Shown in pieces: positions 16,351-44,566 of a stretch of DNA of 64,000 nt. The position numbers and the translations under genes were made by a program. The notes below the pieces were generated by a model. It had not been told where the DNA came from. It worked only from the letters and a program-made list of their open reading frames with translations, and ran no database searches. Every line of letters starts with the position of its first letter. Position 1 is the first letter of the stretch. The stretch is from Bacillota bacterium (GTDB taxonomy: Bacteria > Bacillota > Clostridia > Christensenellales > SZUA-584), in assembly GCA_023408075.1 (NCBI GenBank), contig JAEYKW010000046.1, positions 1 through 64,000 of the forward strand, given 5' to 3'.

Positions 16351-16383
16351 CTGATAGCCGGCTTCCCCAATTTTTTTGTTATC

Positions 16384-16412
16384 AGTATAGATTGTGGCCA
16401 TGCTGATGTCAA
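16384..16412 (-). promoter_or_regulatory. sigma-A promoter for the WYL regulator (TTGACA-17-TATACT on the minus strand)
   Basis: The reverse complement reads TTGACAtcagcatggccacaatcTATACT. Confidence 0.4.
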
Positions 16413-16468
16413 CAATTGTGGGTATAATTAAATAGTAAGATTGGAAATGCAATAAATGGAGGTAATTT

Positions 16469-27230: not shown

Positions 27231-28145
27231 TCAAGTTCTATTTTTATATTTGTTTACCATGTCATTTAATTCGTGCCGGAGCGCGTCGCGTATTTTCTGA
27301 GGGGATAACACCTCTGCATCAGCGCCGAACGAGAGGAGATAGCGGATCAGCCATTTGCTGTCTGGCAAAGAGGCAGTGACGGTGAAAGAACCGTCCTGAT
27401 GTTTAAAAATGCTGTTTTCCTCAAATTCATCGTATACTCGGTATGCACCTTCGGCGCGAATCTTCAGGCATAAATCGACCCGGTTCTGCGTTTCTTGTGC
27501 CTGTCCGCTTCCCGGTAATTCTGACGATTCTCTTTCTGAGAAAGACTCCGATGTCATCAGGATATCCGACATTCGTATGATTTTGAAGATTCTAAATGTA
27601 TTTCTGGCCAAACAGAACGCTTTCAGGTACCAGGCGTTTACCTTGAAGACGAGCTTAACTGGTTCAACTCTCCGGATGCTTTTTTCACCGGATGAGCTAA
27701 AATAATTGAACTCAATAATCCGGCGGCTTAAAATGGCGTCTTTTAAAATGGTAAAATGGCCCATCCTGCTTTCGTCGCTGCCCCAGGGGCTGAAATCCAC
27801 CTCAAGCCAACCGGTTTTGTTTTTATTGAACAAACTGCTCAATTTGGCAAGCACTTGATCCATCTGAGGAGCTTTAGTGACCGACAGGCTTTGCAATGCG
27901 TATAGGATTTCGTTTTGTTCTCTTTCCGAAAGGATGGATTTATCAAGCACGTAATCGTCCAGCAGAGAGATGCCTCCGCCCTTACCTTGGGTTGCATAAA
28001 TCGGCACGCCTGCCGAAGACAGGGTTTCGATATCTCGATAAATGGTTCTTTCAGATACTTCAAAACGCGCTGCCAGCTCTTTGGCGGTTGTGGTTTTTTT
28101 ACGAAGCAAGATATAGATTGTTTCAAACAGCCTGTTAATTTGCAT
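27231..28145 (-). CDS. WYL-domain transcriptional regulator (HTH_11 + WYL)
   Basis: AKELAARFEVSERTIYRDIETLSSAGVPI plus a WYL domain. First gene of the minus-strand operon. Confidence 0.8.
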   Translation of the reverse strand: MQINRLFETIYILLRKKTTTAKELAARFEVSERTIYRDIETLSSAGVPIYATQGKGGGISLLDDYVLDKSILSEREQNEILYALQSLSVTKAPQMDQVLAKLSSLFNKNKTGWLEVDFSPWGSDESRMGHFTILKDAILSRRIIEFNYFSSSGEKSIRRVEPVKLVFKVNAWYLKAFCLARNTFRIFKIIRMSDILMTSESFSERESSELPGSGQAQETQNRVDLCLKIRAEGAYRVYDEFEENSIFKHQDGSFTVTASLPDSKWLIRYLLSFGADAEVLSPQKIRDALRHELNDMVNKYKNRT

Positions 28146-28567
28146 ATCATCACCCCAAATTCATTATAAAGCAAATAACCTGATACTAATATGTCAAGTT
28201 ATGCGTCAATGAACCAAATGTGTTATGCCATTTTATGGGTAAATATTTGACGGTGGAGAATGATTGAATTGCCTTGTTGATTTTTGATTTATTCATCAAC
28301 ATCCACCGTCACGCCGGACTTGAACTCCACGGTGAATTTGTCCTCGTATACGGTGACTTTTTCAATTTACCGCAGACAAGCGGCTCGTGTATTCGACCTA
28401 GGCGGTGGGGGACTCACAGTTATATGATCGTAATGGGTCTCTTTTTGGACATTATAATAAACATGACAGTATGCCGTCATATTAGAAATGTTATTATAGA
28501 TTGTCGGAATCAAAAGGTGCGGAGAAAGTCCACCGAGCACTAAAAAGTAACTGGGAGATGAAGTCAT

Positions 28568-28894
28568 TTGAAAGACATGAATTTTAGCAAGATTATTGAA
28601 CGTTCCCTTGCCATAAGAGAAAGTTATCGTAAATTGGAAGAGCAGTATCACGGTGAAAAGTGGTCGGTCGGAGAAGATGCCCTTGCCTTTCTAACAGATG
28701 CCGGTCTGGTTGGCCGTTTAACAATGTCCCAACAAGGGCGTTGGCCCAAAGGAAACGGTACAGAAGCTGAATTGAAGCATAAGCTTAGCGAATGTATTTG
28801 GTGGCTGATTGTTTTGGCCGAGCGTATGGAGATCAATATTGAAGAGGCAGTGGAGGTTTTTTTGTCTAAGCTCGAAAAACAGATGCAAGGCTGA
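28568..28894 (+). CDS. MazG-like nucleotide pyrophosphohydrolase (YpjD-like small form)
   Basis: 108 aa with the EExGExxWxLxxLAxxxxIxxEEA pattern. Confidence 0.55.
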   Translation: MKDMNFSKIIERSLAIRESYRKLEEQYHGEKWSVGEDALAFLTDAGLVGRLTMSQQGRWPKGNGTEAELKHKLSECIWWLIVLAERMEINIEEAVEVFLSKLEKQMQG

Positions 28895-29017
28895 ATCGTT
28901 AGAGATACGAATATTTATAGCTGAATAACAAAATTATGCATTCTGCAATCATAATCCTGTAGAGTGGCTTTTTTTTATTATTCATCCACCGGCAAAAAAT
29001 GATATATTATTATTCTC

Positions 29018-29046
29018 TTGACAAATTCGTACTACGTATGTAGTAT
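29018..29046 (+). promoter_or_regulatory. blaI promoter (TTGACA-17-TAGTAT) overlapped by a BlaI/CopY-type operator palindrome
   Basis: TACTACgtatGTAGTA (29030-29045) lies between and over the -35/-10 elements; it is related to TACAnnTGTA cop/bla boxes. Confidence 0.45.
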
Positions 29047-29081
29047 TCAAATTACAGAGGTAAACAAAGGAGATATTAGCT

Positions 29082-29456
29082 ATGATACCCAAAATTTCCG
29101 ACTCTGAGCTGGAAGTCATGCGGTTGCTTTGGCGCGAAGAGCGCCCCTTGTCGTTTGCCGAGATACGCACGGAGCTTGAAAGCAAAACCAAATGGACTAA
29201 ATCCACGATTCAAACACTTGTGGTTCGCTTGCGCGACAAGGGCGCTGTCAGCACACAAACCAACTATGTAACTTTGTACAGTCCCGCCGTCACCGAGCAG
29301 GAATATGTATTGGCAGAGGGTCAATTGTTTCTGGATAAGCTGTTTAAAGGGAACGCGAAAAAGCTTGTCGCGTCATTGTGTGAAAACGGACAGTTAAACG
29401 AAAGCGACATCGACGAATTAAAGCAGTTTTTCAAAATGGAGGACTGTCAAAAATGA
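29082..29456 (+). CDS. blaI: BlaI/MecI/CopY-family transcriptional repressor
   Basis: Winged helix SDSELEVMRLLW...SFAEI...TKSTIQTLVVRLRDKG and a C-terminal dimerisation helix. Confidence 0.85.
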   Translation: MIPKISDSELEVMRLLWREERPLSFAEIRTELESKTKWTKSTIQTLVVRLRDKGAVSTQTNYVTLYSPAVTEQEYVLAEGQLFLDKLFKGNAKKLVASLCENGQLNESDIDELKQFFKMEDCQK

Positions 29457-31333
29457 TCATATCACAATTGAGCGACATTGTTTGCACGATTATGATTATG
29501 TCACTCTCCGGCAGCGCTCTCATACTGCTGTTGTTTGCATTAAAACCGCTCATACGTCATCAATTGCCCAAGTCGGTGCAATATGTCTTGTGGCTCGTTA
29601 CGCTCGCGGCACTGCTCGTTCCGGTATCAAAGCTGATTGCCATACCCGATGCGCCGTCACATATCATAGTTGCACCGATCCAAAACGCCGTAGAACAAAA
29701 CAATATCGCAGGTAAAGAAGCAGCGGATACACTTTCTCAGACGAATACAGTTTCGCAGACAGATAGAACGACAACGAAAAATCCGGGTGTTAAGCCAGCG
29801 ATGCACCCTGTATTCACAGCGGCAACTGTATTGATGATAATCTACATGTTAATCGTATTGGTCGTGCTGTCTTATTACATCGTCAGCTACGTTCGGTTCA
29901 CAAGAAGAGTGCGCCGCCATCGCACCCGGGCGCGCATGGAAGAGCTTTATGAGCATGTCGGGTTATGCGGCGATACGATTGCGCCCCGTCTTTACCGCAG
30001 CGCGCTGACCACAACGCCGATGCTGATCGGGATATTTAAACCCGAGATCATATTGCCCGACCGTGAATATACGGGCGCACAATTTCAGAGTGTATTAAAG
30101 CATGAGCTAACTCATTTGCGCAGACGGGACATCATAGTCAAGTGGCTGTCCGTGTTGGCCCGAGCTGTGCACTGGTTCAATCCGCTCGTATGGCTTGCGT
30201 TGCGCGAAATCGACCGTATCTGTGAATTGTCCTGTGACGAGGCCGTGATACGAACAATGGATCACGCAGGAAAACGGAGTTATGGGGAAACATTGATTTC
30301 CATCGCAGCTGATAACAATGCATCGCGGGCCGTGCTTTCCACAACGATGTGTGAGGAAAAAGAGGTATTGAAAGAGCGGCTGAACCTCATTATGAAATAC
30401 CAAAAGCGGACATGGGTCACGCTCGTTATCTCGACGATTATTATATTCGCAGCTGTTTTCACAGCCTTTGTTATGGGCGCACGGGCGGCTTCTGCTCCTG
30501 GAGATAATATGGCTGGCGCAGTGGCTCCGGCATCCGTGCAGAGTGCTCTTCCATCGGATTCTGCGGCAGCCCAGCCGCATTCTCCCTCTGAAAAAGTTAT
30601 AGAGTTCAAGGATCCGATTGTGGAGAAGGTCATCAGCGCCAAATTGAAAAAGCCAGAAGGCGCGATCACCGAGCAGGACATGCTGAAGATTGAGGATTTT
30701 GAATTCAATGATGTAAGAATGAATATATACAGCGGGAAAATTAAAACGATAGAGGACCTGCGCTGGTGTGTGAATCTTAAGAGTATATTCTTAGCCAGTA
30801 CGGACATAACAGATATTTCCGCGCTATCCGGCATGCGGAATCTCGAATCCGTCTGTATCATGGAAAAGCTTGACGACTTCACTCCGCTGCTTGGCAACAA
30901 GAACCTTACCGAAATCCAACTCACAGGCGCTGCCGACAACTTTTTCAGGGATCTGATGAAAAATTGCAGAATGCTTTCCTCCGTGGGCCTGACTAAGTCA
31001 GACGTCAGCCCTGAAAGCATCCGAATGTTGGCAATGAACTTTAAGTTAACAACTCTTGTTATGAATTTCTGCTATATAAAGGACGTCACTCCTTTCATCG
31101 ACTTCACGGGGCTGGAATACTTGTCGCTTGAAAACAACTATATAAAAGATATCTCGGTGTTTGCGGCGAACCCGGAATTGAGCAAAGCCATCGATCTGAG
31201 CGGCAACCAAATCACCGACTGGAGCCCGCTGGAAGATATGACGTTGCTTAGCCTCAACGTATATGATAATCCGGTAACGAAAAGTCCAGCACTGGATAAA
31301 CTCGAAAAAAAAGGCTGTGAAATTTATAGGTAA
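29453..31333 (+). CDS. BlaR1/MecR1-family M56 metalloprotease signal transducer with C-terminal leucine-rich-repeat sensor domain
   Basis: 4 TM helices, HELTHLRRRD (HExxH) and the M56 core. After a further TM helix there is an internalin-like LRR domain (...LSLENNYIKDISVFAANPELSKAIDLSGNQITDWSPL) instead of a penicillin-binding domain. Overlaps blaI by 4 nt. Confidence 0.8.
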   Translation: MIISQLSDIVCTIMIMSLSGSALILLLFALKPLIRHQLPKSVQYVLWLVTLAALLVPVSKLIAIPDAPSHIIVAPIQNAVEQNNIAGKEAADTLSQTNTVSQTDRTTTKNPGVKPAMHPVFTAATVLMIIYMLIVLVVLSYYIVSYVRFTRRVRRHRTRARMEELYEHVGLCGDTIAPRLYRSALTTTPMLIGIFKPEIILPDREYTGAQFQSVLKHELTHLRRRDIIVKWLSVLARAVHWFNPLVWLALREIDRICELSCDEAVIRTMDHAGKRSYGETLISIAADNNASRAVLSTTMCEEKEVLKERLNLIMKYQKRTWVTLVISTIIIFAAVFTAFVMGARAASAPGDNMAGAVAPASVQSALPSDSAAAQPHSPSEKVIEFKDPIVEKVISAKLKKPEGAITEQDMLKIEDFEFNDVRMNIYSGKIKTIEDLRWCVNLKSIFLASTDITDISALSGMRNLESVCIMEKLDDFTPLLGNKNLTEIQLTGAADNFFRDLMKNCRMLSSVGLTKSDVSPESIRMLAMNFKLTTLVMNFCYIKDVTPFIDFTGLEYLSLENNYIKDISVFAANPELSKAIDLSGNQITDWSPLEDMTLLSLNVYDNPVTKSPALDKLEKKGCEIYR

Positions 31334-31520
31334 GGAACTTTATAGCCCCGCCGTCACCGAGCAGGAATATGTATTGACCGAGGGTCAATTGTTTCTTGAT
31401 AAACTGTTTAAAGGGAACGCGAAAAAGCTTGTCGCGTCGTTGTGCGAAAACGGACAATTAAGCGAAAGTGACATCGACGAATTAAAACAATTTTTCAAAA
31501 TGGAGGACTGTCAAAAATGA
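31317..31520 (+). pseudogene. Truncated blaI copy (C-terminal dimerisation half only) created by tandem duplication
   Basis: The 67-aa ORF is about 90% identical to residues 66-124 of the full BlaI and lacks the DNA-binding domain. Confidence 0.5.
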
Positions 31521-33421
31521 TCATTTCACAATTAAGCGATATCATTTGCACGATTCTCATTATGTCTCTCTCCGGCAGCGCTCTCATACTGTTATTGTTT
31601 GCATTGAAACCGCTCATACGCCATCGTTTGCCCAAATCGGTGCAATATGTCTTGTGGCTTGTCACGCTTGCGGCACTGCTCGTTCCCGTATCAAAGCTGA
31701 TTACCATACCCCAAGCGCCGTCAGATATCATAGTTGCACCGATTCAAAATGCCGTGGAACAAAATAATGTTCTGGTTCAGGAAGAAACAAATATGGTGCC
31801 GCAGACGGACACAAATACAGTGCCGCAGACGGACACAACGACAGCAAAAAGTCCGGCTGTGAAACCGGCGATGAACCCTGTCATAACAGCCACAACCGTA
31901 CTGATGTTGGTCTATATATTAATTGTATTGGTCGTGCTGGCTTATTACATAGCCACCTACGTTCGTTTCACAAGAAGAGTGCGCCGGCACCGCACCCGGG
32001 CGCGTATGGAAGAGCTTTATGAGCATGTCGGGTTATGCGGCGATACGATTGCGCCTCGCCTTTACCGCAGCGCGCTGGCCACAACGCCGATGCTGATTGG
32101 AATTCTTAAACCTGAGATCATATTGCCTGACCGTGAATATACCGACACACAGATGCAGAGTGTATTGAAACATGAGTTAACTCATTTGCGCAGACGGGAC
32201 ATTATTTTTAAATGGCTGTCTATATTCGCCCGCGCTTTGCATTGGTTCAATCCGCTCGTATGGCTTGCGCTGCGCGAAATCGACCGTATCTGTGAATTGT
32301 CCTGTGACGAGGCTGTGATACGGACTCTCGATCAAACGGGAAAACGGATTTACGGGGAAACGTTGATTTCCATCGCATCGGATACGAATGCATCGCGGGC
32401 CGTGCTTTCCACAACGATGTGTGAAGAAAAAGAGGTGTTGAAAGAGCGGCTGAACGTTATTATGAGATACCAAAAGCGCACATGGATCACTCTCGTTGTT
32501 TCGACGGTCATCGTGGTTGCGGCGGTTTGCGCCGTCTGTGTGTTCGGTGCGGGAGCGGCTCCGTCGGCGGCTCCGGGCAATAATAAGGTGGATGCATTAG
32601 CAGCAGTCGCCATACAGAGCCCGTCAGCAACGCCCGTGGCAACGCCGGAATCAGCCTCCTTGCAGAGCGTTTTGCCGTCGGCGGCGCCTGAAGAAGAGGC
32701 GCAGCCAGTATCTTTAGAGAGCCCATCGACGGCACCTGAGGCAGCAATGCAACCGGCACCCGTTCAAAGCTTTTTCGCATCACCTGCGCAAACACCGGAC
32801 CCGGATTATATAAATGAGCTGCGCAAAGATGCCATAGAAGTAAGCACAGAAGAAGAATTTGCTGATGCGCTGAATACTGCCGACGTCGTTGTATTGAAAA
32901 AAGATTTAACGCTAGATGATGAATTTGTGACATTAGAAGATTTAGAAGCGCTGGTTATTGATGAAGGCGTTACACTGACTGTCACGTGTTTGAATCTTCA
33001 TGCGACCTGTGAAATCGTCAACCTTGGAGAAATCATAGTGGCCGATTCCGGTCGATTGATGTTTTTCAGTGAACCGGATTATTCTACGATCGGTAAAATC
33101 AGTGTTATAGGGAAAGACGCCAAAATCTTATACGGTGCAGGCAAAGTCGGTGCTGAAGCAATTGCTTATTATCTGAGCGATGATTCGCTCTTTAATGAGC
33201 TTAGTTTAACCCCGCCTTACAGGGATGGCGAAATTGTTGAGATACTCGTTGACCAAGACATTGAGATAGCCGCCGGTAAAACTCTTTGGATGAATGCTCA
33301 TAGCGTACTGCATGTGGCAGAGGGAGTGACCCTTACCAATAACGGGGCCATACGCTATTATGTCGAACCCATCATCGACGGGAAAATCGATGGAATAGGA
33401 AAAGTCGTCTATGATGATTAA
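31517..33421 (+). CDS. BlaR1-family M56 signal transducer paralog with novel C-terminal extracellular domain ('domain X')
   Basis: The N-terminal 340 aa are about 90% identical to the first BlaR1. After a Pro/Ala/Ser-rich linker there is a 210-aa domain shared with the LysM protein at 33501 (…VIDEGVTLTVT..NLHATCEIVNLGEIIV.DSGR…). Confidence 0.8.
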   Translation: MIISQLSDIICTILIMSLSGSALILLLFALKPLIRHRLPKSVQYVLWLVTLAALLVPVSKLITIPQAPSDIIVAPIQNAVEQNNVLVQEETNMVPQTDTNTVPQTDTTTAKSPAVKPAMNPVITATTVLMLVYILIVLVVLAYYIATYVRFTRRVRRHRTRARMEELYEHVGLCGDTIAPRLYRSALATTPMLIGILKPEIILPDREYTDTQMQSVLKHELTHLRRRDIIFKWLSIFARALHWFNPLVWLALREIDRICELSCDEAVIRTLDQTGKRIYGETLISIASDTNASRAVLSTTMCEEKEVLKERLNVIMRYQKRTWITLVVSTVIVVAAVCAVCVFGAGAAPSAAPGNNKVDALAAVAIQSPSATPVATPESASLQSVLPSAAPEEEAQPVSLESPSTAPEAAMQPAPVQSFFASPAQTPDPDYINELRKDAIEVSTEEEFADALNTADVVVLKKDLTLDDEFVTLEDLEALVIDEGVTLTVTCLNLHATCEIVNLGEIIVADSGRLMFFSEPDYSTIGKISVIGKDAKILYGAGKVGAEAIAYYLSDDSLFNELSLTPPYRDGEIVEILVDQDIEIAAGKTLWMNAHSVLHVAEGVTLTNNGAIRYYVEPIIDGKIDGIGKVVYDD

Positions 33422-33500
33422 GAACCAAAATTAAGATTTATAGCGGATATATAGTAAAACGAATTGTTTAATAACTTAATGCCGATAATAGGAGGATGCC

Positions 33501-34427
33501 ATGAAAAGATATTTCGCTATCACAATTGTCATTATCTTCATCCTGTCCTTGCTGCCGGGTTATGCCAGCGCTGGCACTGCTGAGCCTTCTATAATAACAG
33601 CCCGTGCGACTGCGCCAGATCTTAAACCCGGCCAGATTTCTCAGATGTATGAGGAGTATACCGTCAAGCGCGGAGACAGCCTTTCTTCGATTGGCAGACA
33701 ATTTGGCGTATCATGGCGGGACATCGCGAAACTGAACGATATACATGGCCCGAAGTATACAATTCGACCCGGTCAAATATTAAAAATCCCACAGTCACTA
33801 ACATCATCCCCGTCTTATGTAAAACAGCTGCGCAAAAATGCAGTAAAAGTGAACACAGAAAAAGAATTTGCTAATGCGCTGAAAACAGCCTATGTCATTG
33901 AACTGAAAAAAGATATAACTTTAAGTGAAAATCTTGTTACATTAGACGATATCAATGCGCTGGTTATTGATGAAGGCGTTACGTTGACTGTCACATCTAT
34001 GAATTTTCATGCTACATGTGCAATCGTTAACCTTGGAGAAATCATAGTGAAGGACTCCGGCCGGATGATTTTTCACAGTGAACCGGATTACTCCTGTATC
34101 GGTAAAATCAGTACCAGAGGGAGATTCGCTCAAATTGCCTTCAATTCGGGAAAAATCGGTGCTGATGAAATGACTTATTTCCTGAGCGAAGATTCGCTGT
34201 ACGATTCGCTCAATATTGTCGCAAGTTCCTCCGATGGAAAACCTGTCGAGATATTGGTTGACCATGACATTGTCATCCCTGCCAGTAAAACCCTTTGGAT
34301 AAATTCTGGAAGCGTTTTGCATGTGTCAAAGGGAGTGAAGCTAACCAATAACGGTACCATAAGCTATTTTAACGAACCTATCATTGACGGGAAAATCGTT
34401 GGAATAGGAGAAGTCATTGATAACTAG
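33501..34427 (+). CDS. Secreted LysM-domain protein carrying 'domain X' (shared with BlaR1 paralog 2)
   Basis: Signal peptide and LysM (YTVKRGDSLSSIGRQFGVSWRDIAKLN...ILKIP). The C-terminal 210 aa are about 55-60% identical to the BlaR1b sensor domain. Confidence 0.7.
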   Translation: MKRYFAITIVIIFILSLLPGYASAGTAEPSIITARATAPDLKPGQISQMYEEYTVKRGDSLSSIGRQFGVSWRDIAKLNDIHGPKYTIRPGQILKIPQSLTSSPSYVKQLRKNAVKVNTEKEFANALKTAYVIELKKDITLSENLVTLDDINALVIDEGVTLTVTSMNFHATCAIVNLGEIIVKDSGRMIFHSEPDYSCIGKISTRGRFAQIAFNSGKIGADEMTYFLSEDSLYDSLNIVASSSDGKPVEILVDHDIVIPASKTLWINSGSVLHVSKGVKLTNNGTISYFNEPIIDGKIVGIGEVIDN

Positions 34428-34791
34428 AAACCGTATTTAAGCTTAAGGCTCATCAACTGAATTCAATTATTAACGGATATGCTAAATTTAAAACAGCGGA
34501 ACGCTTCACTTTAGCGGTTATATTTCTGCTCAAGGTTCCCATACTAGTGCTCACATTTATTAACATTGGATGGGATCTTTTACGGTAGCAATTGGGTGTG
34601 GAACGACGTCGTAAAAAACGTCGTTCCGAGCGGGTTCGGTCGGTTTATGCTTTTCAGTTTATATTGACTCCTATCTCAGTGACCCGTCGATTGCGTTGAA
34701 ACCTTAAAGCACGAAGATAATTACGATAGCAATCGTTTAGCAGCTAATGAAACAATTTTTGAAATTCTGAAAAAAACAGCAGGAGGACGCC

Positions 34792-36246
34792 ATGAAAAGA
34801 TTATACACCTTAACAATCGTCATTCTCCTCATACTGACCCTGCTGCCGGGCTATGCCAACGCGGGTGCAGCCGCATTTCCCGAAGCATCCGCGCAAGCGG
34901 CTGCCTTAACACCTCCGGTGCCGATACTGTCACTCGCGCTCGACCAATACTCTGAGCTTTACCGGGAGTACACGGTTAAGCGCGGTGACAGTCTTATCTC
35001 GATAGGCAGACAGTTCAAGGTGCCGTGGAGAGATCTTGCAATACTGAACGGTATAGGGGGACCAAAGTACACGGTTACCAACGGACAAACCCTCAAAATC
35101 CCGCTGCTGCCGAAGCTGCCGGGGACAACCGGCAATTATCTTATTCTTTGCGAAAACGAAGCGCAAAAGCAATGCCTGGCCGAATTCGCAGCATACAAAA
35201 TATTAAACGGATATTCGGTGACGATAAAAAGCGTGGAAGCGGATGTCAAATTGAAAGCCGATGCCGACACCAGCGAAGAGATACGGCAATATCTTAAGAA
35301 GATGGACAAGGTGTTATCGCTGGAATTCGTGTTACTTGTCGGGAGCGCTTACGATGAAGAATCGGCTTGTATTCAGCACACCGGCGGAGCTATTCCGCTG
35401 AGATATATGTACGACAATCCGGCCAATCGTGACTACAGTTGGTACGATGGCAAGAACCATAAAGTATTCAAAACGCCGACAGATATCTATTATGCGTTGG
35501 ATCTAAACTGGGATTTTGACGAGGATGGTTTCGCAGGCGAAAGGAATGAGATGGCCGAAAGCGTTAAGCAAGCAGAGCCCAAGTTGTTGTTCCGGCTTGG
35601 CAGAATCCCATTTTCGGATAGCAAAGATATCAAGAAGGTACTGGATTCAACGATGCAATATGAAATCAGCCAAAAAGCACATTCTGATGCTCTGATCGGC
35701 AGCTATGGGATATGGGCTTACTATAGCGATGCGCTTGCGAATAATTTCTCCAATATGAAGATTAAGGCTGTCTCGCTTTACGGAAATGACGAAAATGGGC
35801 CGTGTCAGTACAAAAGCACCTACCCGTTAAGTATCGATAATTTCTTTAGTGAAATCAATAAGAAGTATGACTTTGTTTATATAATGGGCGATATAAAAAA
35901 ATATTGCGGCAACACGCCTTTAGGGAAACGCGTGCAGGCCGGAATTTACTTCCTCGACGGTACGGCGACAATGCAAGCGGAGCCCGAACCGAAATATTCT
36001 CGATTTAATGCACAGGATTTCCTTGCCGAAGGGTCGGCCTGTACCGTGATTGCCACCACCGAAGAAGTCGGTTTTAACCCGAAAAATCCGGTCCCGCGCA
36101 TAACCAGCAGGTTATTCTCCAATAAAATGCTCAGCATCTCAGGTGAATTCTATGCCGCGGTACTGTCGTCGATCATGGAGGACGATGTGAGGGAAGCCTA
36201 TGTTTACTGCTATCTCGGTGACCCGTCTATCGCCTTAAAACAATAA
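34792..36246 (+). CDS. Secreted LysM-domain protein with C-terminal peptidase-C25 (gingipain)-like domain
   Basis: Signal peptide and LysM paralogous to the 33501 gene. C-terminal region has the C25-type pattern YALDLNWDFDEDGFAGE...PKLLFRLGRIPFS. The catalytic His/Cys are not clearly identifiable. Confidence 0.55.
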   Translation: MKRLYTLTIVILLILTLLPGYANAGAAAFPEASAQAAALTPPVPILSLALDQYSELYREYTVKRGDSLISIGRQFKVPWRDLAILNGIGGPKYTVTNGQTLKIPLLPKLPGTTGNYLILCENEAQKQCLAEFAAYKILNGYSVTIKSVEADVKLKADADTSEEIRQYLKKMDKVLSLEFVLLVGSAYDEESACIQHTGGAIPLRYMYDNPANRDYSWYDGKNHKVFKTPTDIYYALDLNWDFDEDGFAGERNEMAESVKQAEPKLLFRLGRIPFSDSKDIKKVLDSTMQYEISQKAHSDALIGSYGIWAYYSDALANNFSNMKIKAVSLYGNDENGPCQYKSTYPLSIDNFFSEINKKYDFVYIMGDIKKYCGNTPLGKRVQAGIYFLDGTATMQAEPEPKYSRFNAQDFLAEGSACTVIATTEEVGFNPKNPVPRITSRLFSNKMLSISGEFYAAVLSSIMEDDVREAYVYCYLGDPSIALKQ

Positions 36247-36478
36247 TGGGGGTGCTGGGGCTCATTGAATGAGCCAGGAAAGGGGACATGGGAATAAAGG
36301 CCTTCTATAGCAGGATTAACGCCATATGAGGCCTTAATTCCATAAAAAGCGAAGAGAGAAAGTCAGCCGCAGAGCCAGTATTAGCGGAAAAGAGCTGCCT
36401 TCACCAAGCCGGATAGTCGGAGGGATTTGAGCCACAGCTGTTTTTGTGATATATTCGGTATAAAATTTTTATTAAGAT

Positions 36479-37000
36479 TTGGAGTCAAAAATGGATAAGG
36501 CTAAACGAAACAACACGATAACTTTTTCATTATTCATCATTTATATATTGGTATTGATATGGATAGTCCTTTTTAAACTGCACTTTTCTTTTGCAGAAAT
36601 GGACAGGATAAGAACTATCAATCCGATTCCATTTCAGGGCTCCGGCATTGGTGCTAATGAAGTTTATAACATACTTTTTTTCATTCCTTATGGTATTTAT
36701 ATATGTATGTTAAAACGCCAATGGTCTTTTATAAAAAAGGTTATTATCATTCTATGTTTCAGTTTGTCTTTTGAAATCCTTCAATATATTTTTGCAGTCG
36801 GAAGAACGGACATAACGGACTTGCTATGCAATATGCTGGGCGGAATCATTGGTGTTGGTATTTACGGATTGTTATTCAGAATAATAAAATATAAAACCAA
36901 TAACGTCTTGAATATTGTACTTTTGTTATTAACAGTATGTATATTATTGTTTTTCGCTTTGTTAGTTACACACTCGCTGCCGTTTGTTTTTAATCTATAA
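36479..37000 (+). CDS. VanZ-like family membrane protein
   Basis: 4 TM helices. LSFEILQYIFAVGRTDITDLLCNMLGGIIG matches the VanZ pattern. Confidence 0.6.
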   Translation: MESKMDKAKRNNTITFSLFIIYILVLIWIVLFKLHFSFAEMDRIRTINPIPFQGSGIGANEVYNILFFIPYGIYICMLKRQWSFIKKVIIILCFSLSFEILQYIFAVGRTDITDLLCNMLGGIIGVGIYGLLFRIIKYKTNNVLNIVLLLLTVCILLFFALLVTHSLPFVFNL

Positions 37001-37173
37001 ATCTATAGATTGATAACTGTGCTGTTTGGTCGCTCGGTTTGCGAGTTTTAACATTTGCAAAAAGGTATATTATACGACATTTTCCATGGAATTAACTTGT
37101 ACTAACATAACGAATAAACTATAATATCCATATATAACTAAGATAAAAATAGAAAAAAAGGAGTATTGGACCA

Positions 37174-39849
37174 ATGAAAAAGCTTAGTCTCTTTCTCGTG
37201 TTGTTGTTACTCATTTCTATGTTCCCATTACAGGCATTGGCTGCCGATGAAAACAACGACAGCTATAACGATCACGATGTGGCGCAGATAAGCGCATTTT
37301 TGAATCAAACGTCTTCCGGCTTAACCAACGCGGAAATACTCGGTTATGCCGACCCAAATGATCCGGCGATATGGAGCGATGTCTCTTGGGTTTCAGTGGA
37401 TGGTGAACAACGCGTTCAGAGCATCAACTGGGGCTTTAAGGATACCGCAGGAGTGCTGGACCTTTCGGGATGCACGGCCTTGACCGAACTGTATTGTCTC
37501 TCGATCGGGCTGACCTCTCTGGATGTGAGTGGATGCACCGCTTTAAGCACGCTATCATGCGAATTTAATTCGCTGACCAGCCTCGATGTCAGCACCTGCA
37601 GCTCGCTCAGTCAGCTTTCTTGTTATGTTAATGCTATTGAAACATTAAATGTGAGTGGCTGCAGCAATTTGACATGGCTGAATTGTTCTGAAAATAAACT
37701 CACACAGCTCGATGTGAACAGCTGTGCCAATCTTGGCGATCTTGATTGCAGTCATAACAATTTGTCGTCGTTGGATGTGAGCGGCTGCCCTCTGGGATAC
37801 TTATCATGTACTGAAAACCCGCTGAAACAGATTCACGCTGTTATAGAGGGAGAGGATGTCAAACTGAACGCATCAGCAGGATATCTTAAGTTATCTTATT
37901 TGGCTTACGACATCGAAGGTGAGATGTACGTCGATAGATATTCCGCGTCGGCTGTCCCTGACAGCATGCCGTGCTCCGGGTGGACGGGAATGCAGGACGG
38001 GGTGTTATTCTCGTCAGACGATTCCAATATCGATCTTGAAATCGGCTGTTCATACGACATTACCGCGAATTTTGCGAGCGGAACCGTATACAACGACCAT
38101 GACGTCACAAAGATGCAGGTATTCCTCAATAAAGAGCCTTTAGAGGGACCAAATTACATGCAGCTGGGTTATGACGTTGACGACCCGTCCACCTGGAACG
38201 ATGTGACTTGGGTGGCTTCGCCCGAAGGCCTGCGCATATCGGCGGTTGAATGGAACGAAAGACAAGCCGTCGGCGGTACGCTCGATCTTTCCGGCTGCGC
38301 CTATCTTGAGTCTGTCGATTTTTACGGTAACGAGCTTCATGGGCTTAATTTGAACGGCTGTGCCGCGCTTAAGAATGTTTCCTGCAACGATAATTATCTT
38401 GATACGCTGAGTCTAAGCGGATGCGACGAGTTAACAAGCTTAAAGCTCAACAACAACAACGGGCTTCTCATTGCGCTTGAGCTGCAGGGGTATACAAAGC
38501 TTGAGCACCTTGAGTGCGTACAAAGTCTTCTCGATACACTTGATGTTGGCGGCTGCACGGCACTCACATATCTTGATTGCAGCAACACTTATGAGTACAA
38601 TCGCAATTTTATCAACACTCTTGACCTGAGCGACAGCACGGGGCTGACAACGCTGAAATGTGCAGGCAATCCTCTGGCTCGTATAAGCGCGATTATGAAC
38701 GATACTGTGATAGATCTTACCGCCGGAGGGTGGGGATATGTCGCATTATCTGAGGGCGGAGAGACAGCTTATACGGTGCAAGTGCCCGATACTCAACCGT
38801 TTTCAAGCTGGATAGGCACACAGGACGGCTCCCCGTTCTTTTCAGCCGAATCGACAATAAATTTAACGCCCGGCTCCGAATATGTCCTGATGGCGAATTT
38901 CGGTTACGGCGTTTTTTACGACGGCAACGGAGCGACGGGCGGCACAGTACCCGATGGCGGCAGACACAACGCGGGGGATTCCATTGGGGTGCGCAGCAAC
39001 TCGGGCAGCCTTGAGCGAGCGGGTTTTGAATTTGCAGGCTGGAACACGGCGGCTGACGGCAGCGGCACATCATACAGCGAGGACTCATCGATGATGATGC
39101 CCGCAGAGAACATCACGCTGTACGCGGTTTGGGAGCCCATCGCCTATACCATCACCTATGACCTCGACGGAGGTGAGGCACAGAATCCCGCGACTTACAA
39201 TGCTCTGACCCCGGCATTCACGCTGAATAATCCTACGAAACTGGGATATGTGTTTGCGGGCTGGACGGGAACGGACCTTGCGAATGCGGCGATGAGCGTC
39301 AGCTTCCCGGCGGGGTCCATAGGCGACAGGGCTTACACAGCAAACTGGGCGCAGAACACAGTATACACCGTCACATTCGATGCGAAGAACGGGAGCGCGG
39401 TGGACAGCATTGAGGTGAATGCGGGAGGGACAATTGAAACCGCCCCTGTCACGAGCCGGTTCGGTTATAACTTTACCGGCTGGTATACGAAGAAGGGAGT
39501 GCTCATAACGTTCCCATATCATGTAACGGGCAGCGTGACGCTTTATGCGGGGTGGGAGAAGCAGCCAAAGACAGCATACCTTTCGGATGTTGAACTCTCG
39601 TCTGGCACTCTCGATTCAAACTTTTCGAATTCGAAATACCTCTATTTAATAAGGCTGCCCGAGAGTGAGACGAGCTTTACGCTGACCCCGGTTAAAGAGT
39701 ATGATGGCGCTTCGATGTCGATAAACGGGGAATCCACATCGAGTTACACGGTTAACCTTGAAAACCATAGGAATGCGCTGATATGCGTGATCGTGCAAAA
39801 CGGCAAAAGCATAAGGCTGTATACTTTCATCGTGCACAGAGGAAGATGA
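37174..39849 (+). CDS. Large secreted LRR protein with Listeria-Bacteroides repeats and C-terminal cadherin-like beta-sandwich domain
   Basis: Signal peptide and two copies of the cap+LRR module seen in the 14349 gene. Also 3-4 Listeria-Bacteroides (Flg_new) repeats (GY.FAGW..). C-terminal LS.GTLDSNFSNSKYLY...FTLTPV is cadherin-like. Confidence 0.75.
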   Translation: MKKLSLFLVLLLLISMFPLQALAADENNDSYNDHDVAQISAFLNQTSSGLTNAEILGYADPNDPAIWSDVSWVSVDGEQRVQSINWGFKDTAGVLDLSGCTALTELYCLSIGLTSLDVSGCTALSTLSCEFNSLTSLDVSTCSSLSQLSCYVNAIETLNVSGCSNLTWLNCSENKLTQLDVNSCANLGDLDCSHNNLSSLDVSGCPLGYLSCTENPLKQIHAVIEGEDVKLNASAGYLKLSYLAYDIEGEMYVDRYSASAVPDSMPCSGWTGMQDGVLFSSDDSNIDLEIGCSYDITANFASGTVYNDHDVTKMQVFLNKEPLEGPNYMQLGYDVDDPSTWNDVTWVASPEGLRISAVEWNERQAVGGTLDLSGCAYLESVDFYGNELHGLNLNGCAALKNVSCNDNYLDTLSLSGCDELTSLKLNNNNGLLIALELQGYTKLEHLECVQSLLDTLDVGGCTALTYLDCSNTYEYNRNFINTLDLSDSTGLTTLKCAGNPLARISAIMNDTVIDLTAGGWGYVALSEGGETAYTVQVPDTQPFSSWIGTQDGSPFFSAESTINLTPGSEYVLMANFGYGVFYDGNGATGGTVPDGGRHNAGDSIGVRSNSGSLERAGFEFAGWNTAADGSGTSYSEDSSMMMPAENITLYAVWEPIAYTITYDLDGGEAQNPATYNALTPAFTLNNPTKLGYVFAGWTGTDLANAAMSVSFPAGSIGDRAYTANWAQNTVYTVTFDAKNGSAVDSIEVNAGGTIETAPVTSRFGYNFTGWYTKKGVLITFPYHVTGSVTLYAGWEKQPKTAYLSDVELSSGTLDSNFSNSKYLYLIRLPESETSFTLTPVKEYDGASMSINGESTSSYTVNLENHRNALICVIVQNGKSIRLYTFIVHRGR

Positions 39850-40193
39850 AAAGGATGATAGCCGATAGAGCCATAAATCGGAGATAACGTATATTGAAGC
39901 CTGTAAAATGGTTTTTAGAAAGCGGTTCGCAACGCTGTCAAGAAAAACGAACAGGAAAAAAGTTGACTGGCTCTCGCACTCTACGGGAGTCAGTTTTTAT
40001 TCTCCGATTGTTTCTCGATATTATTTTTAAGGAATTGAATTCCCCGTCACTTTGTTCGTAAACAGTAATTTTCTCTGTCATTGCGGGAAGCCTTTTCTAT
40101 GTCAAAATGATTTTGGCGCAGTGACGTTCGGTAAAGATACAACCAAAGATCAACAAACCGGTTTAGTATAGAATAAGAGTATAAAAAGCCCTC

Positions 40194-41153
40194 TTAATCG
40201 AGTATCTTTATATCAATGACCGCATCCTGATTAATGACTCTTCCGGCCTCGTCAATATATTTATCGCGGTTTTCCCATGTTATGCTGATCTTTTGATATC
40301 TTGACAGCGTTTCCGGGGCAACCTCGGTCTGTGTCATCCAGAACCAAAGGTCATCGCCTTCGATCGTACGGACGGCCATATGTTTATAATCGCCCCATTG
40401 CAGCCCTGCAAAATAAAAGTCCAGTTCTTTTGTATCATGGACGGTGCCATCGACAAGGTTGTCATCTTCCTCCGCTATATCTTCGGTCGGTTCTTCCTGA
40501 TTCTCCGGCACAGTATCCCCAAAGGACTCGGCAGTACCGGGGTACCCTTGATAGTCCTGTGCGACCTTCCATTTGCCGTCTTGGGGCACAAGCACAAACA
40601 CGCGGTAGTTAAGCCCCTCCCGGTAATCCCAAAATTCCTTATCGAGCGTATAATCCGTTTTAGCGACAAGCAGGCGGACGTCTCCGTATATTTCCGGCAC
40701 GTCAGACCGAAAGCCTGATGCGATCTCGTAAGGAATATTGTCGGTTTCATAATCAGAGAGCTTCGATTTTGCATCTTCGATTTCCCGTATATCAGCCAAT
40801 TTGGCGCTCTCAATAGAGAAATAGCCGTTTTTGTTTTTCTCATTGTCGGAGTATGCAAAGAAATCCTTAAAATATTGCTGCTCCTCGTTGGTCCAGAGGT
40901 TTAAGAAAGCGTCCCAGTCGTGAGCGTTCTGGGCGGCAATAAAGTCTGTGATGACGGCTTCGATTTCCGGATCAAGCGTGGAAGACGGTGAGGCAGCTGC
41001 GGCTTCCGTTTTGGCGGGGACAGGCGAAGCAGCCGGGGCAGCGGTAGCGCCGGGAGTTGGGGTGATGGATGATATATTGCCGGGATTACCGCATGCCGCA
41101 AGGACAAACAGCAGCATCAAAAGCACAATCAGCAAAACAAACACAGAACGCAT
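40194..41153 (-). CDS. Hypothetical lipoprotein
   Basis: Lipobox LAACG, Ala/Pro/Thr-rich linker, AGGAGGTG RBS before MRSVF. Confidence 0.45.
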   Translation of the reverse strand: MRSVFVLLIVLLMLLFVLAACGNPGNISSITPTPGATAAPAASPVPAKTEAAAASPSSTLDPEIEAVITDFIAAQNAHDWDAFLNLWTNEEQQYFKDFFAYSDNEKNKNGYFSIESAKLADIREIEDAKSKLSDYETDNIPYEIASGFRSDVPEIYGDVRLLVAKTDYTLDKEFWDYREGLNYRVFVLVPQDGKWKVAQDYQGYPGTAESFGDTVPENQEEPTEDIAEEDDNLVDGTVHDTKELDFYFAGLQWGDYKHMAVRTIEGDDLWFWMTQTEVAPETLSRYQKISITWENRDKYIDEAGRVINQDAVIDIKILD

Positions 41154-41560
41154 AAGAGCACCTCCTGATCTCATCATACAATCTTAAGTAAAAAATGCAA
41201 TATTATTGTATGTCGGGAACAAGGAAAAGGATACTCCTTTCCGATTTTCAGCCTTAAATCATGATAACACAGTATATGACTGAATAAGCACGCTGAAGGA
41301 TATCGTGCGGAGAATGGCTCACTGGCTGGGATTTATATCATGTCTTTGGCCTTTGGCGCTGGAGCCTTGAATACTGTTGAAGGAACAGCGCTCCTTGTCG
41401 CGGATAAATTTGCATTATAGTCGCATTTGCAATATACTTTTCAAATAACCAACTTTTAGCTCGCCAGATTCCCTTTACACAGTGAAGAACTCTATACTGC
41501 ATCAGGTTTAAAGCATAAAAATATCAAGCATTAAAACAAGAAGCTAAGAAAGGGTTTTGT

Positions 41561-44500
41561 ATGGACAAACCGGTACTTTCCAATGAGAACGCCAAAAGGC
41601 TGCAACAAAGCGAGGAAAGGCTTCTTGCACTGTTAAAGGCATCTTCAGATGTCATCTACCATATGAGCCCCGACTGGAAAACGATGACCGAGCTATACGG
41701 ACGCGGGTTTATGGCCGATACGGATGAAGCTGACTCGAGCTGGCTCGAAAAATATATACACCCTGATGATCAGCCGCATGTGACAGAATTGATAGAAAGC
41801 TGTATCAAGGATAAAAGGCTATTTGAGCTGGAGCATCGTATACTGCGGCCGGATGGGAGTATCGGCTGGACACATTCCCGGGCTATTCCCATGATGAACG
41901 AAGAAGGGAATATTAAAGAATGGTTTGGCGCTGCCAGCGATATAACGAAAGTTAAGCAAGTCGAAGAGAGCGCGAAAAAAGCTAATGAGGAGGCAGAGAG
42001 ACGGGCGCAAGATGTTCAAAACGAGCGTAAACGATTTTTTGACGTACTGGAAACCCTGCCGGTCATGATCTGTCTGATTACCCCGGAATACCGCATTCCA
42101 TTTGCCAACAAAGCGTTTCGCGAGAGGTTCGGAGAAGCAAACGACCGGTATTTTTATGAGTATTGCTGCGGATATACAGAGCCTTGCCCTTTCTGCGAAT
42201 CGTTGGTGCCGCTCAAAACCGGTCGGGCGCATCACTGGGAGTTTACTTCTCCGGATGGCAATACCATTATTGATGCCTACGACTTTCCATTCAGCGATAC
42301 TAACGGTTCTCCTCTGATCCTCGAAATGGATATTGACATCACCGAGCACAGAAAAGCAGAAGAGGCGCTGCATAAAGTATATCTGCGGGAAGAGGTTCTC
42401 GGCGAACTTACAAGCTGGCTTCTTGAGAGCGAAGATCCGCAGGCTATCATGGAGGAAATCTGCAGGAAGTCAATCGGTTACGTCGAATGCGATGTTTTTA
42501 TAAATTGTGTTGCAGAGGGTGATCATCTGTTGTTAAATTCCTATTCCGGGATATCTGCCGAAGAGGTTGAAAATTTAAAACGGCTTGAGTATGACGAGAC
42601 AGTCTTCGGCTGCATCGCCGCAAAAGGTGAGCGCATCGTCGTACCTGATGTGCAGAATTCAGCAGACCAGAGAGTACAGATTGTTAGGTCCTTCGGCGTG
42701 CAGTCTTTTGCGGGCTTTCCCCTTAAATCTGACGATCACGTCATCGGCACGCTCTCTTTCGGAAGCAGAAAACGGAAGACATTTACTGAGGATGAACTGT
42801 TATTTATGAATATCGTTTCCGGGCACATAGCAATAGCGATTAACCGCCTTATTATATTGAAAGCGTTGCGAGACAACCGAGAGAGCCTCGAAGAAGAATT
42901 GAAAGGCGCAAAGCTCCTTAAAGGAATAAGCACCGAGCTTCTTTACCAGGAAGATACCCGGGAATTTTATGAGAAAATAATAGATGCTGCGTCAGGCATT
43001 ATGCATTCTCAATTTGCGAGCATACAGATGTTAAGCCCAAACGGGGATGATAAAGGAAAGCTTAAACTGCTTGCATACCGCGGATTTAATCAGAAGGCAA
43101 CGGTGTTCTGGAAGTACGTAGACATATCGTCGGGCTCATCCTGCGGAGAGGCACTGCGCACAGGAGAACGCATAATAGTGCCTGATTTGGAGAAATGCGA
43201 CTTTATGCAGGGAACGGAGGATCAGATAATCTACCTTCAAACCGGAATCCACGCCACTCAGACAACGCCGCTTTACTCACGCAGCGGCAGGCCAGTGGGC
43301 ATGATCTCCACTCATTGGAGCGAACCATATGTTCCATCGGAAGGTGAGCTTCGGCAGCTTGATGTTCTGGCAAGGCAGGCTGCCGATGTTATCGATCGGA
43401 GACAATTCGAGGAGGCGCTGCGGGAGAGTGAGGAAAAGGCTATCGCGTTGGTGGGAGAGCTTGAAGAAACGGATAGGAATAAGAACCAATTTATCAGCGC
43501 TTTATCCCATGAACTCCGTAACCCTCTGGCGGTTATCTCAGCAGGGCTGGAAATACTGAGCCTTTCTCAAAATAAAGAACAGATACAAAAGGCAAAAGAT
43601 ATCATGTATCGCCAGATGAACCAGCTTTGCTCTCTGGTTGATGACCTGCTGGACTTGACCCGGATTTCGAACAATAAGATAGAGCTTAAAAAAGAGAAAA
43701 TTGAGCTTAATAAACTCATATCACTGATTACAGATGACCAACAGGCTTTGTTTGACGAAAAAGGCATGACTCTGTATACAAAAATCAGCAGCCATTCAAT
43801 TTTTATTCATGCCGATTCTGTGCGTTTAAAACAAATTATAGGCAATCTGCTTCACAACGCACAAAAATATACCCGGCCCGGAGGAGAAACGGTGTTAAGT
43901 GTTAATGAAGATAATCACGAAGCAGTGATTCGTGTGAAAGATAACGGGATTGGCTTAAGCCTCGAATTAATACCACGTTTGTTTCAGCCTTTTGTTCAGG
44001 CCGATTCATCGCTCGACAGGAGCAGCGGAGGGCTCGGGCTCGGGCTTTCAATAACAAAGGGAATCGTTGAATTGCATGGGGGTAGCGTAAAAGCTTTTAG
44101 TGAGGGGCTGGGGAAAGGCTCCGAGTTTACGATAAGGCTGCCGATACTCGATGAAGAAGGTGCCGACGATGTGACCAAAGCAAAACCGGTATGCAGTGCG
44201 GCGCGATCTCTTCGCATACTGATTATTGAGGATAACAAGGATTTTGCCGATCTGTTGAGCACGATGCTTATAGAGATTGATTATCAGGTTGAGGTAGCTT
44301 ATGACGGATATAGGGGTTTGGAGATATTAAAGCATTTCCAGCCGGATATTATTCTCTGCGATATCGGGCTGCCGGGAATGGACGGATTTGAGGTGGCGAA
44401 GAACATAAAAGAGAATGAGGCTCTCAAAGATACATTTTTGGTCGCGCTCACAGGGTATGCGGAGGAAGACGATTTAAAACGCGCAAAGGAAAGCGGGTTC

Positions 44501-44566
44501 AACCGGCTTATGGCAAAGCCGGTCAGCCTTGATGCAATACAGGCATTGCTTTGTGAAATAAAATGA
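41561..44566 (+). CDS. Cytoplasmic hybrid sensor histidine kinase (PAS-GAF-GAF-HisKA-HATPase-REC)
   Basis: H-box ISALSHELRNPL, G-boxes (DNGIGLS, GGLGLGL) and a C-terminal receiver (ILIIEDN...DIGLPGMDG...K). No TM segments. Confidence 0.85.
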   Translation: MDKPVLSNENAKRLQQSEERLLALLKASSDVIYHMSPDWKTMTELYGRGFMADTDEADSSWLEKYIHPDDQPHVTELIESCIKDKRLFELEHRILRPDGSIGWTHSRAIPMMNEEGNIKEWFGAASDITKVKQVEESAKKANEEAERRAQDVQNERKRFFDVLETLPVMICLITPEYRIPFANKAFRERFGEANDRYFYEYCCGYTEPCPFCESLVPLKTGRAHHWEFTSPDGNTIIDAYDFPFSDTNGSPLILEMDIDITEHRKAEEALHKVYLREEVLGELTSWLLESEDPQAIMEEICRKSIGYVECDVFINCVAEGDHLLLNSYSGISAEEVENLKRLEYDETVFGCIAAKGERIVVPDVQNSADQRVQIVRSFGVQSFAGFPLKSDDHVIGTLSFGSRKRKTFTEDELLFMNIVSGHIAIAINRLIILKALRDNRESLEEELKGAKLLKGISTELLYQEDTREFYEKIIDAASGIMHSQFASIQMLSPNGDDKGKLKLLAYRGFNQKATVFWKYVDISSGSSCGEALRTGERIIVPDLEKCDFMQGTEDQIIYLQTGIHATQTTPLYSRSGRPVGMISTHWSEPYVPSEGELRQLDVLARQAADVIDRRQFEEALRESEEKAIALVGELEETDRNKNQFISALSHELRNPLAVISAGLEILSLSQNKEQIQKAKDIMYRQMNQLCSLVDDLLDLTRISNNKIELKKEKIELNKLISLITDDQQALFDEKGMTLYTKISSHSIFIHADSVRLKQIIGNLLHNAQKYTRPGGETVLSVNEDNHEAVIRVKDNGIGLSLELIPRLFQPFVQADSSLDRSSGGLGLGLSITKGIVELHGGSVKAFSEGLGKGSEFTIRLPILDEEGADDVTKAKPVCSAARSLRILIIEDNKDFADLLSTMLIEIDYQVEVAYDGYRGLEILKHFQPDIILCDIGLPGMDGFEVAKNIKENEALKDTFLVALTGYAEEDDLKRAKESGFNRLMAKPVSLDAIQALLCEIK

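Follow-up and report, generated by a model that had tools for sequence, protein, structure and literature searches.

BlaI/BlaR1-type (BlaIR) systems have long been read as β-lactam resistance switches. In BlaI/BlaR1 and MecI/MecR1 (Staphylococcus aureus, Bacillus licheniformis), a winged-helix repressor is encoded by a gene translationally coupled to that of a four-transmembrane (four-TM) M56 gluzincin, and a palindromic operator lies in the pair's own promoter. We analyzed a locus of the same build from a Bacillota bacterium (contig JAEYKW010000046.1), at positions 29018-36246 of a 64-kb stretch of DNA, hereafter the window. The locus is a BlaI/BlaR1-family repressor and membrane-protease signaling module without a penicillin-binding sensor. 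On balance, we think it likely to be an autoregulated BlaIR-like switch that works by regulated proteolysis, takes two inputs other than β-lactams, and probably controls surface proteins that share a sensor's binding module.

A survey of about 15,000 M56 proteins (Kurtz et al. 2026, J Bacteriol; PMC13492132) found 254 architectures, with a transpeptidase domain in only about 6% of the proteins, and placed about 96% of them within five genes of a BlaI. In Clostridioides difficile, the non-canonical pair CenIR regulates a peptidoglycan hydrolase together with an exported protein whose gene lies just downstream of the pair (PMC13492132). The atypical BlaIR pair PvmSR of Pseudomonas aeruginosa does not control β-lactam resistance (bioRxiv 10.64898/2026.08.03.742534), and mycobacterial BlaI/BlaR, as cited in PMC13492132, likewise does not. 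Because non-β-lactam BlaR sensors are the norm, we regard the locus as an interesting variant and not as a new kind of system. The initial annotation of this DNA had treated the missing canonical sensor as notable, a view that the survey does not bear out.

The locus also resembles the canonical systems in its exodomain logic. The canonical exodomain is homologous to the secreted class that it regulates (OXA-like sensor and β-lactamase), and some class D β-lactamases lie nearer to the sensor domain of BlaR than to the other enzymes of their class (PMC9045261). Unlike the canonical systems, the locus has (i) no transpeptidase sensor, (ii) no β-lactamase or PBP2a target, (iii) two sensors per repressor, and (iv) non-enzymatic exodomains, one of leucine-rich repeats (LRR) and one a predicted β-helix. 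CenIR is alike in being a BlaIR pair without a transpeptidase domain, with an exported protein encoded just downstream as top regulon member and an envelope-related regulon; however, it has one sensor, CenR has a short, largely disordered tail, and no domain sharing with the regulated protein is reported, whereas the exodomains here are large and folded. PvmSR and the mycobacterial pair share the lack of a β-lactam resistance role, but belong to other phyla and have single sensors, with no LRR or β-helix exodomain or paralogous secreted partner reported.

We searched the open reading frames (ORFs) of the window with Pfam and NCBIfam profiles. Six ORFs, all on the + strand and each with a significant family match, make up the locus, in the order and at the coordinates that the initial annotation had given:

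29082-29456, + strand: blaI-like gene, 124 aa; full-length winged-helix repressor matching PF03965 over positions 1-112 of 115 (E 5.5e-27).
29453-31333, + strand: BlaR1-LRR sensor-protease, 626 aa; Peptidase_M56 at aa 13-313 (E 7e-56), LRR_4 (E 6e-17); M56 module aa 1-345 (29453-30487), Ala/Pro/Ser linker, LRR exodomain aa 386-626 (30608-31330).
31317-31520, + strand: blaI 3' remnant ORF, 67 aa, GTG start; matches PF03965 profile positions 60-113 (E 3.6e-9).
31517-33421, + strand: BlaR1-X sensor-protease, 634 aa; M56 at aa 13-315 (E 1e-55); M56 module aa 1-347, long Ala/Pro/Ser linker, domain X aa 428-634 (32798-33418; 207 aa).
33501-34427, + strand: LysM-X, 308 aa; signal peptide, LysM at aa 53-97 (E 4e-16), domain X aa 103-308.
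34792-36246, + strand: LysM-C25-like protein, 484 aa; signal peptide, LysM at aa 60-104 (E 4e-10), Peptidase_C25 (E 2.7e-13).

Both sensors keep the HELTH (HExxH) motif and the downstream Glu in CELSCDE. A hydropathy scan of each gave four hydrophobic segments at about aa 6-34, 38-67, 116-150, and 318-350, placed as in BlaR1; with the orientation taken from the family, this layout would put the C-terminal exodomain outside the cell. Neither sensor matches the transpeptidase profile PF00905 at E ≤ 0.01, and the NCBIfam model blaR1_generic (NF000326) aligns only over positions 8-323 of 585, with scores of 138 and 137 against a cut-off of 400. No gene for a β-lactamase or penicillin-binding protein (PBP) is present in the roughly 15 kb that flank the locus on each side. 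On both points the initial annotation was right. Its description of the first sensor as ending in an internalin-type LRR domain was right in part: LRR_4 repeats are present at about aa 420-610 of BlaR1-LRR, but the NCBIfam internalin models score only 38-50 bits against cut-offs of 1050-1600, and judged by these profiles the exodomain appears to be an LRR domain rather than an internalin. Orthologous M56-LRR proteins (P0160, P0161, P0163) exist, and M56-LRR fusions recur in many Clostridia under the NCBI names "leucine-rich repeat domain-containing protein" or "M56 family metallopeptidase"; a literature search on M56-LRR proteins found no paper.

The exodomain of the second sensor, domain X, is shared with the secreted protein encoded next to it, as had been proposed. 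BlaR1-X has no Pfam match over aa 340-634, and its aa 406-631 align with aa 83-306 of LysM-X at 58% identity (E 1e-89); the X domains of these two proteins are 58-62% identical. The accompanying claim that X is a novel domain is not supported. Structure prediction gives a small right-handed β-helix, confidently modeled, and 8 of 11 members have weak, sub-threshold matches to PF20585 (pectate lyase-like adhesive domain; Pectate_lyase_5). Hence, X appears to represent not a new fold but a member, unannotated and of narrow distribution, of a common class of adhesin-like folds. A word-indexed search of 5.8 billion proteins returned only 11 relatives, and an exhaustive profile search of 1.84 billion representatives returned 165 with E ≤ 1e-3, 16 of them with E ≤ 1e-30.

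Domain X is nearly always C-terminal. Its N-terminal partners are M56 modules (P0012, P0013, P0165, P0166, P0169), LysM domains, lipoprotein leaders (P0004), a TM anchor (P0007-P0010), and RCC1 repeats with or without SLH domains. It also ends a fusion of M56 with a sugar-type periplasmic-binding protein (P0020, 936 aa) and occurs in three copies in a MerR-HTH/RCC1 protein (P0014, 1052 aa) in which no membrane segment is evident, so X may be a general sensor or adaptor module. Giant Big_2/dockerin surface proteins contain the last ~50 residues of X as a repeat. In LysM-X and LysM-C25-like, the LysM domain follows an N-terminal hydrophobic leader ending in ASA/ANA, and the two N-termini are 60% identical. 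The LRR and adhesin-like β-helix folds suggest a surface protein or glycan as ligand rather than a small antibiotic. Nothing points to the peptidoglycan-associated ligand put forward earlier for the sensors; the LysM domains are on the secreted proteins and not on the sensors.

Upstream of and within the locus we found the following candidate control elements:

29018-29046, + strand: sigma-70-type promoter TTGACA-17 nt-TAGTAT, matching at 10 of 12 positions; the top promoter-like site in 28000-41500.
29030-29045: candidate BlaI operator, palindrome TACTAC-GTAT-GTAGTA, overlapping the promoter spacer and -10; putative BlaI binding site.
34599-34628, + strand: hairpin with an 11-bp stem and no U-tract after it, in the 364-nt spacer (about 34430-34790) before lysM-C25-like.

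The palindrome occurs once in the window. In an upstream alignment of five related loci, no variation is seen in the -35, in either half-site, in the -10, or in a TTACAG box, and DNA farther upstream is unalignable; the half-sites are kept in L002, L009, L010, and L012 (L numbers denote related loci, listed below). This conserved footprint has the look of an autoregulated BlaI-type operator, to which BlaI would bind. The blaI stop overlaps the blaR1-LRR start as ATGA, the same overlap joins the remnant ORF to blaR1-X, and the 79-nt gap between blaR1-X and lysM-X contains an AGGAGG Shine-Dalgarno sequence (SD). A terminator scan predicted none between blaI and lysM-X. The same scan did not flag the hairpin at 34599-34628, although the 81-nt segment that bears it (34590-34670) folds at -26.6 kcal/mol (z -3.0); the hairpin may attenuate read-through. 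The spacer itself, unusual in its length, may be the scar of a deleted gene, and L014 has two extra genes there. An Rfam search of 28000-40200 gave no riboswitch or other RNA family.

We propose the following mechanism. A BlaI dimer on the palindrome over the -10 would repress the single promoter at 29018-29046 and with it blaI, blaR1-LRR, blaR1-X, and lysM-X, and possibly lysM-C25-like by read-through. The two four-TM M56 zinc-protease sensors, with near-identical membrane and protease modules, would expose the LRR or the β-helix X outside the cell. A ligand on either exodomain would activate the cytoplasmic M56 site, upon which BlaI would be cleaved and the operon derepressed, giving two inputs and one output. 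The main output would be a peptidoglycan-tethered LysM protein that displays the β-helix of one sensor, presumably matched to it in ligand; the cell would sense using a copy of the module that it then deploys.

All close relatives of the locus come from metagenome assemblies and metagenome-assembled genomes (MAGs) of uncultured Bacillota. Their gene orders are as follows:

Window: blaI, sensor-LRR, fragment, sensor-X, LysM-X, LysM-C25-like, VanZ.
L002/L003/L016: blaI, sensor with a different, longer LRR (29% identical), decayed fragment, sensor-X, LysM-X, DUF6962-like membrane proteins.
L009/L017: blaI, sensor-X, LysM-C25-like.
L010/L011: blaI, sensor-LRR, DUF6962-like membrane protein.
L012/L018: blaI, sensor-X, lipoprotein-LRR, lipoprotein-RCC1.
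L013/L022: blaI, sensor-LRR, IS110, LRR protein.
L014: blaI, sensor-X, two unassigned genes, LysM-C25-like, VanZ.
L015: rearranged blaI, sensor-LRR, three tandem lipoprotein LRRs, four DUF6962-like genes.
L033/L035: TM-X, blaI, sensor-X, TM-X.

In the window (with overlapping stop and start) and in all related loci, blaI lies directly upstream of an M56 gene. A second lineage (L002, L003, L016) has the two sensors in the same order even though its proteins have diverged by about 20%, and the order blaR1-X to lysM-X recurs in the same three loci; a BlaR1-X with a LysM partner is also found in L009/L017 and L014. All modules are under purifying selection, with ω (the ratio of non-synonymous to synonymous rates) of 0.10-0.32 between orthologs; blaI orthologs are 77-89% identical, and ω for blaI is 0.10 against L002.

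The initial annotation had also suggested combinatorial swapping between membrane sensors and surface proteins. Neighbor-joining trees of the X and LRR exodomains, built with no bootstrap, intermix sensor-borne and free copies. The L009 sensor X groups with the LysM-X clade and the P0013 sensor X with the TM-anchored P0010; the L012 lipoprotein LRR groups with the L013 sensor LRR, and the L015 sensor LRR with its own free LRRs. Divergence at synonymous sites (dS) between the window and L002 is a mosaic, 0.34-0.36 for X and LysM-X (window 32798-34424 and L002 9296-10927 for the X-to-lysM-X cassette) versus 0.64-0.88 for M56 and blaI, which suggests a later exchange for the 3' cassette than for the chassis. 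Taken together, the exodomain trees, the recombination of modules across loci, and the mosaic divergence support swapping.

These data also bear on whether the locus is only an evolutionary by-product, that is, a recombination-prone, hypervariable surface-protein island in which the second sensor and the blaI fragment are recent debris without a joint two-input function. The window, L010, L014, and L015 share their upstream neighbors, a short-chain dehydrogenase/reductase (adh_short) and an ERG4/ERG24-like reductase (ERG4_ERG24), so one chromosomal site bears different module sets in different lineages, as such an island would. An IS110-family transposase (L013 10304-11545, the same in L022) is inserted between blaR1-LRR and the free LRR gene, and L004 and L015 hold broken copies. 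At L015 7143-7512, a small inversion appears to have broken blaI in two, leaving an N-terminal piece that is inverted and a separate C-terminal piece, and the blaR1-LRR downstream looks intact; at L004 5382-7807, in one assembly of the L002-type locus, two overlapping ORFs stand in place of blaR1-LRR, owing to a frameshift or an assembly error. The decayed blaI remnant of L002 and the dS mosaic fit the island as well. However, both sensors of the window are intact, keep their catalytic motifs, and are under purifying selection, and the two-sensor order is preserved in L002, L003, and L016. We therefore consider a by-product unlikely and favor a functional two-input switch.

In five of the nine distinct clade loci, the sensor exodomain is also present as an adjoining free anchored protein. 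The pairs are sensor-X with LysM-X in the window and in L002/L016, sensor-LRR with an LRR protein in L013/L022, sensor-LRR with three lipoprotein LRRs in L015, and sensor-X between two TM-X proteins, 63% identical, in L033/L035. Beyond the clade, L019 (a distant Oscillospiraceae MAG with an M56 47% identical) pairs a sensor-LRR with an LRR lipoprotein that is ~50% identical, including the pre-repeat cap.

The same pairs could be read differently, with the free exodomain proteins (LysM-X; LRR lipoproteins) as modulators of the sensors and not effectors, either ligand-soaking decoys in a negative feedback or co-receptors or ligands that act through X-X or LRR-X binding. A free copy inside or beside the sensor operon at at least six distinct loci fits this idea, and sensor-X with an LRR lipoprotein in L012/L018, set against sensor-LRR with LysM-X in the window, is as expected of an X-LRR receptor-ligand pair. 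The sensor X and LysM-X lineages, moreover, are distinct yet both conserved since the split of the window and L002. Yet the loci L009, L010, and L014 have no such partner, and X copies at 58-62% identity need not share a binding target. We regard modulators as possible, though distinctly less likely than surface effectors under control of the switch.

Several observations count against the switch as we propose it. (i) Unlike modules are paired in four clade loci, namely sensor-X with LysM-C25-like in L009/L017 and in L014, sensor-LRR with a DUF6962-like protein in L010, and sensor-X with an LRR lipoprotein in L012/L018. (ii) Of three distant M56 loci that were sampled, two (L020, with DUF4362, and L021, with DUF4825) have no matched-domain neighbor. 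(iii) The broken copies, blaR1-LRR in L004 and blaI in L015, imply that the system is dispensable and turns over quickly. (iv) Control of lysM-C25-like by BlaI is uncertain, because the 364-nt spacer and its strong hairpin separate this gene from the others and the window has a single operator-like site; a search for a second BlaI operator upstream of lysM-C25-like, vanZ, or the downstream LRR gene found none in the window. (v) In an alignment made by eye to S. aureus BlaI, the residues at the cleavage-site position are not conserved here.

The two sensors arose by tandem duplication, as had been noted initially. DNA at 29277-29576 is 91% identical to 31341-31640, and 29741-30040 is 86% identical to 31811-32110; the repeat spans mid-blaI to the end of the M56 module, with the second copy lying about 2,065 bp farther on. 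Identity between the two M56 modules is 77% over aa 1-383 and 84% over the core (ω 0.185 between the paralogs), and the likeness ends in the Ala/Pro/Ser linker past TM4. When the modules of the window (29453-30487 and 31517-32506) and of L002 (5612-6650 and 8024-9060) are compared, they cluster by genome and not by exodomain, with bootstrap values of 99 for the window pair and 100 for the L002 pair. This indicates either concerted evolution, by gene conversion between paralogs, or independent duplications.

The blaI fragment between the sensors is the left edge of the second repeat unit, because homology to blaI resumes (at codon 66) 7 nt past the blaR1-LRR stop codon. The homology covers blaI codons 66-124 (59 codons) at 31341-31517, and its 3' end provides blaR1-X with an SD and the ATGA overlap, just as the end of blaI serves blaR1-LRR. 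The 67-aa ORF lacks the winged-helix half, and its only start is a GTG with a weak, too-close SD. The fragment nevertheless differs from blaI in an unusual manner for a pseudogene: at 92.7% nucleotide identity there are 11 synonymous and 2 non-synonymous differences (dS 0.45, ω 0.03). Polarization with six outgroup blaI genes assigns 4 synonymous changes and 1 non-synonymous change to the fragment branch, where about 82% non-synonymous changes would be expected under neutrality (P ~0.005, our binomial estimate). Gene conversion was rejected as the source of this low ω; conversion resets copies and does not bias later changes toward synonymous ones.

One explanation for this signal is that the fragment is expressed as a dimerization-domain micro-protein that tunes the switch by poisoning BlaI dimers or by competing as an M56 substrate. 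The low ω and the open frame, which ends in the ATGA overlap with blaR1-X, agree with it, but the sole, poorly served GTG start does not, and in L002, the only other lineage with the arrangement, the equivalent segment has decayed, with a stop codon and indels, and only its final ~100 nt, which include the SD for blaR1-X, are retained. The low ω would be explained equally well by a recent deletion in a second blaI that had until then been complete and functional. We consider a micro-protein doubtful, more so than the by-product considered above. The fragment, which the initial annotation had listed in the gene order, is probably a remnant rather than a designed part.

The last gene of the locus encodes a second LysM paralog with a different C-terminal domain, as had been proposed; this domain has the caspase-like α/β fold of gingipain (C25). 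Y-x-F-G-H-G-G and F-M-D-G-C-H-T are present in P0293-P0296, distant members of the family alignment. We take the GHGG and DGC motifs to hold the clan CD catalytic His and Cys of gingipains. In the window protein and the eight relatives closest to it, ~23 residues are deleted and Gly-Asp stands in the place of GHGG, and Cys is replaced by Thr, Ser, Leu, or Pro. The Pfam C25 profile aligns with the window protein over positions 1-152 and with the His/Cys-bearing relatives (P0293-P0296) over 1-374. Loss of the dyad is read from motif comparison within the family, because a sequence search against gingipain aligned only the N-terminal subdomain. LysM-C25-like is thus most likely a wall-anchored pseudo-protease that has apparently lost its catalytic His and Cys, an aspect missed when the domain was first described as C25-like. 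The gingipains RgpB and Kgp (C25) are secreted by the type IX system, whereas here the domain is LysM-anchored in a Gram-positive wall.

A VanZ-like gene follows 230 nt downstream:

36479-37000, + strand: VanZ-like membrane protein (PF04892, E 5e-22); a neighbor of uncertain membership in the unit.

We considered whether, given this gene and the membership of the proteins in the BlaI and BlaR1 families, the locus could be a cryptic regulator of β-lactam or glycopeptide resistance. VanZ-like proteins are widespread, however, and shift position relative to the operon in related loci (the gene is also 3' of LysM-C25-like in L014, but upstream in L012). There is no transpeptidase or OXA-like domain in the sensors, no β-lactamase, PBP, or van gene was found in the region, and most M56 systems are not β-lactam sensors (PMC13492132). 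A resistance role is therefore highly improbable, and a switch with non-β-lactam inputs is the reading that we retain.

As to the surroundings, a megablast search of 29000-36300 against plasmids gave no match. Sharing of the sensor LRR with the 891-aa LRR/Flg_new/cadherin-like protein encoded at 37174-39849 was tested and rejected (best E 0.07). The N-terminus of that protein has a paralog (40% identity) in an LRR protein of 329 aa, encoded at 14349-15338, which has a signal peptide, is TM-anchored at its C-terminus, and is unrelated to the sensor LRR. Two HTH-WYL-WCX regulators are encoded on the - strand of the window (15406-16452 and 27231-28145), one of them immediately upstream of, and divergent from, a small ORF ahead of blaI. 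A 1001-aa hybrid histidine kinase (41561-44566; PAS-GAF-GAF-HisKA-HATPase-receiver), which L001 has too, is encoded downstream of the surface-protein cluster.

A functional analogy is offered by RsgI/SigI of Clostridium thermocellum (PMC10328401, PMC6852018). There, paralogous sensors on a common transducer carry swapped extracellular modules (carbohydrate-binding modules, PA14, and others), and the sensor modules also occur in the secreted proteins that are regulated. RsgI/SigI differs in that an anti-sigma factor is cleaved by RseP, whereas here an M56 protease would cleave a repressor, and in that RsgI ligands are plant polysaccharides. We tentatively entertain a broader, cassette-like design for the locus, although we hold it less likely than not to be correct in full. 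The repressor and M56 chassis would accept swappable modules and the same operon would deploy the same module in free form; two sensors would feed one repressor, a truncated BlaI peptide may tune the response, and an RsgI-like logic would have arisen independently. If this is so, the same module in sensor and free protein would match sensor and effector, or sensor and decoy, by construction, and a single recombination could re-target both.

What is new here is modest and purely computational: (i) two sensors on one repressor in two lineages, (ii) folded, swappable exodomains on a concertedly evolving transducer, and (iii) a frequent adjoining free copy of the exodomain. The practical weight is limited, since these are uncultured Bacillota seen only in metagenomes. 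To our knowledge, no ligand or design rule is known for non-canonical BlaIR systems. Exodomains that are folded and predictable rather than disordered, together with natural swaps on a near-constant transducer, provide a testable handle on non-canonical BlaR sensing. Finding what LysM-X or the LRR lipoproteins bind could indicate the input of the sensors, and the locus is relevant to the question of whether one repressor can serve two sensors.

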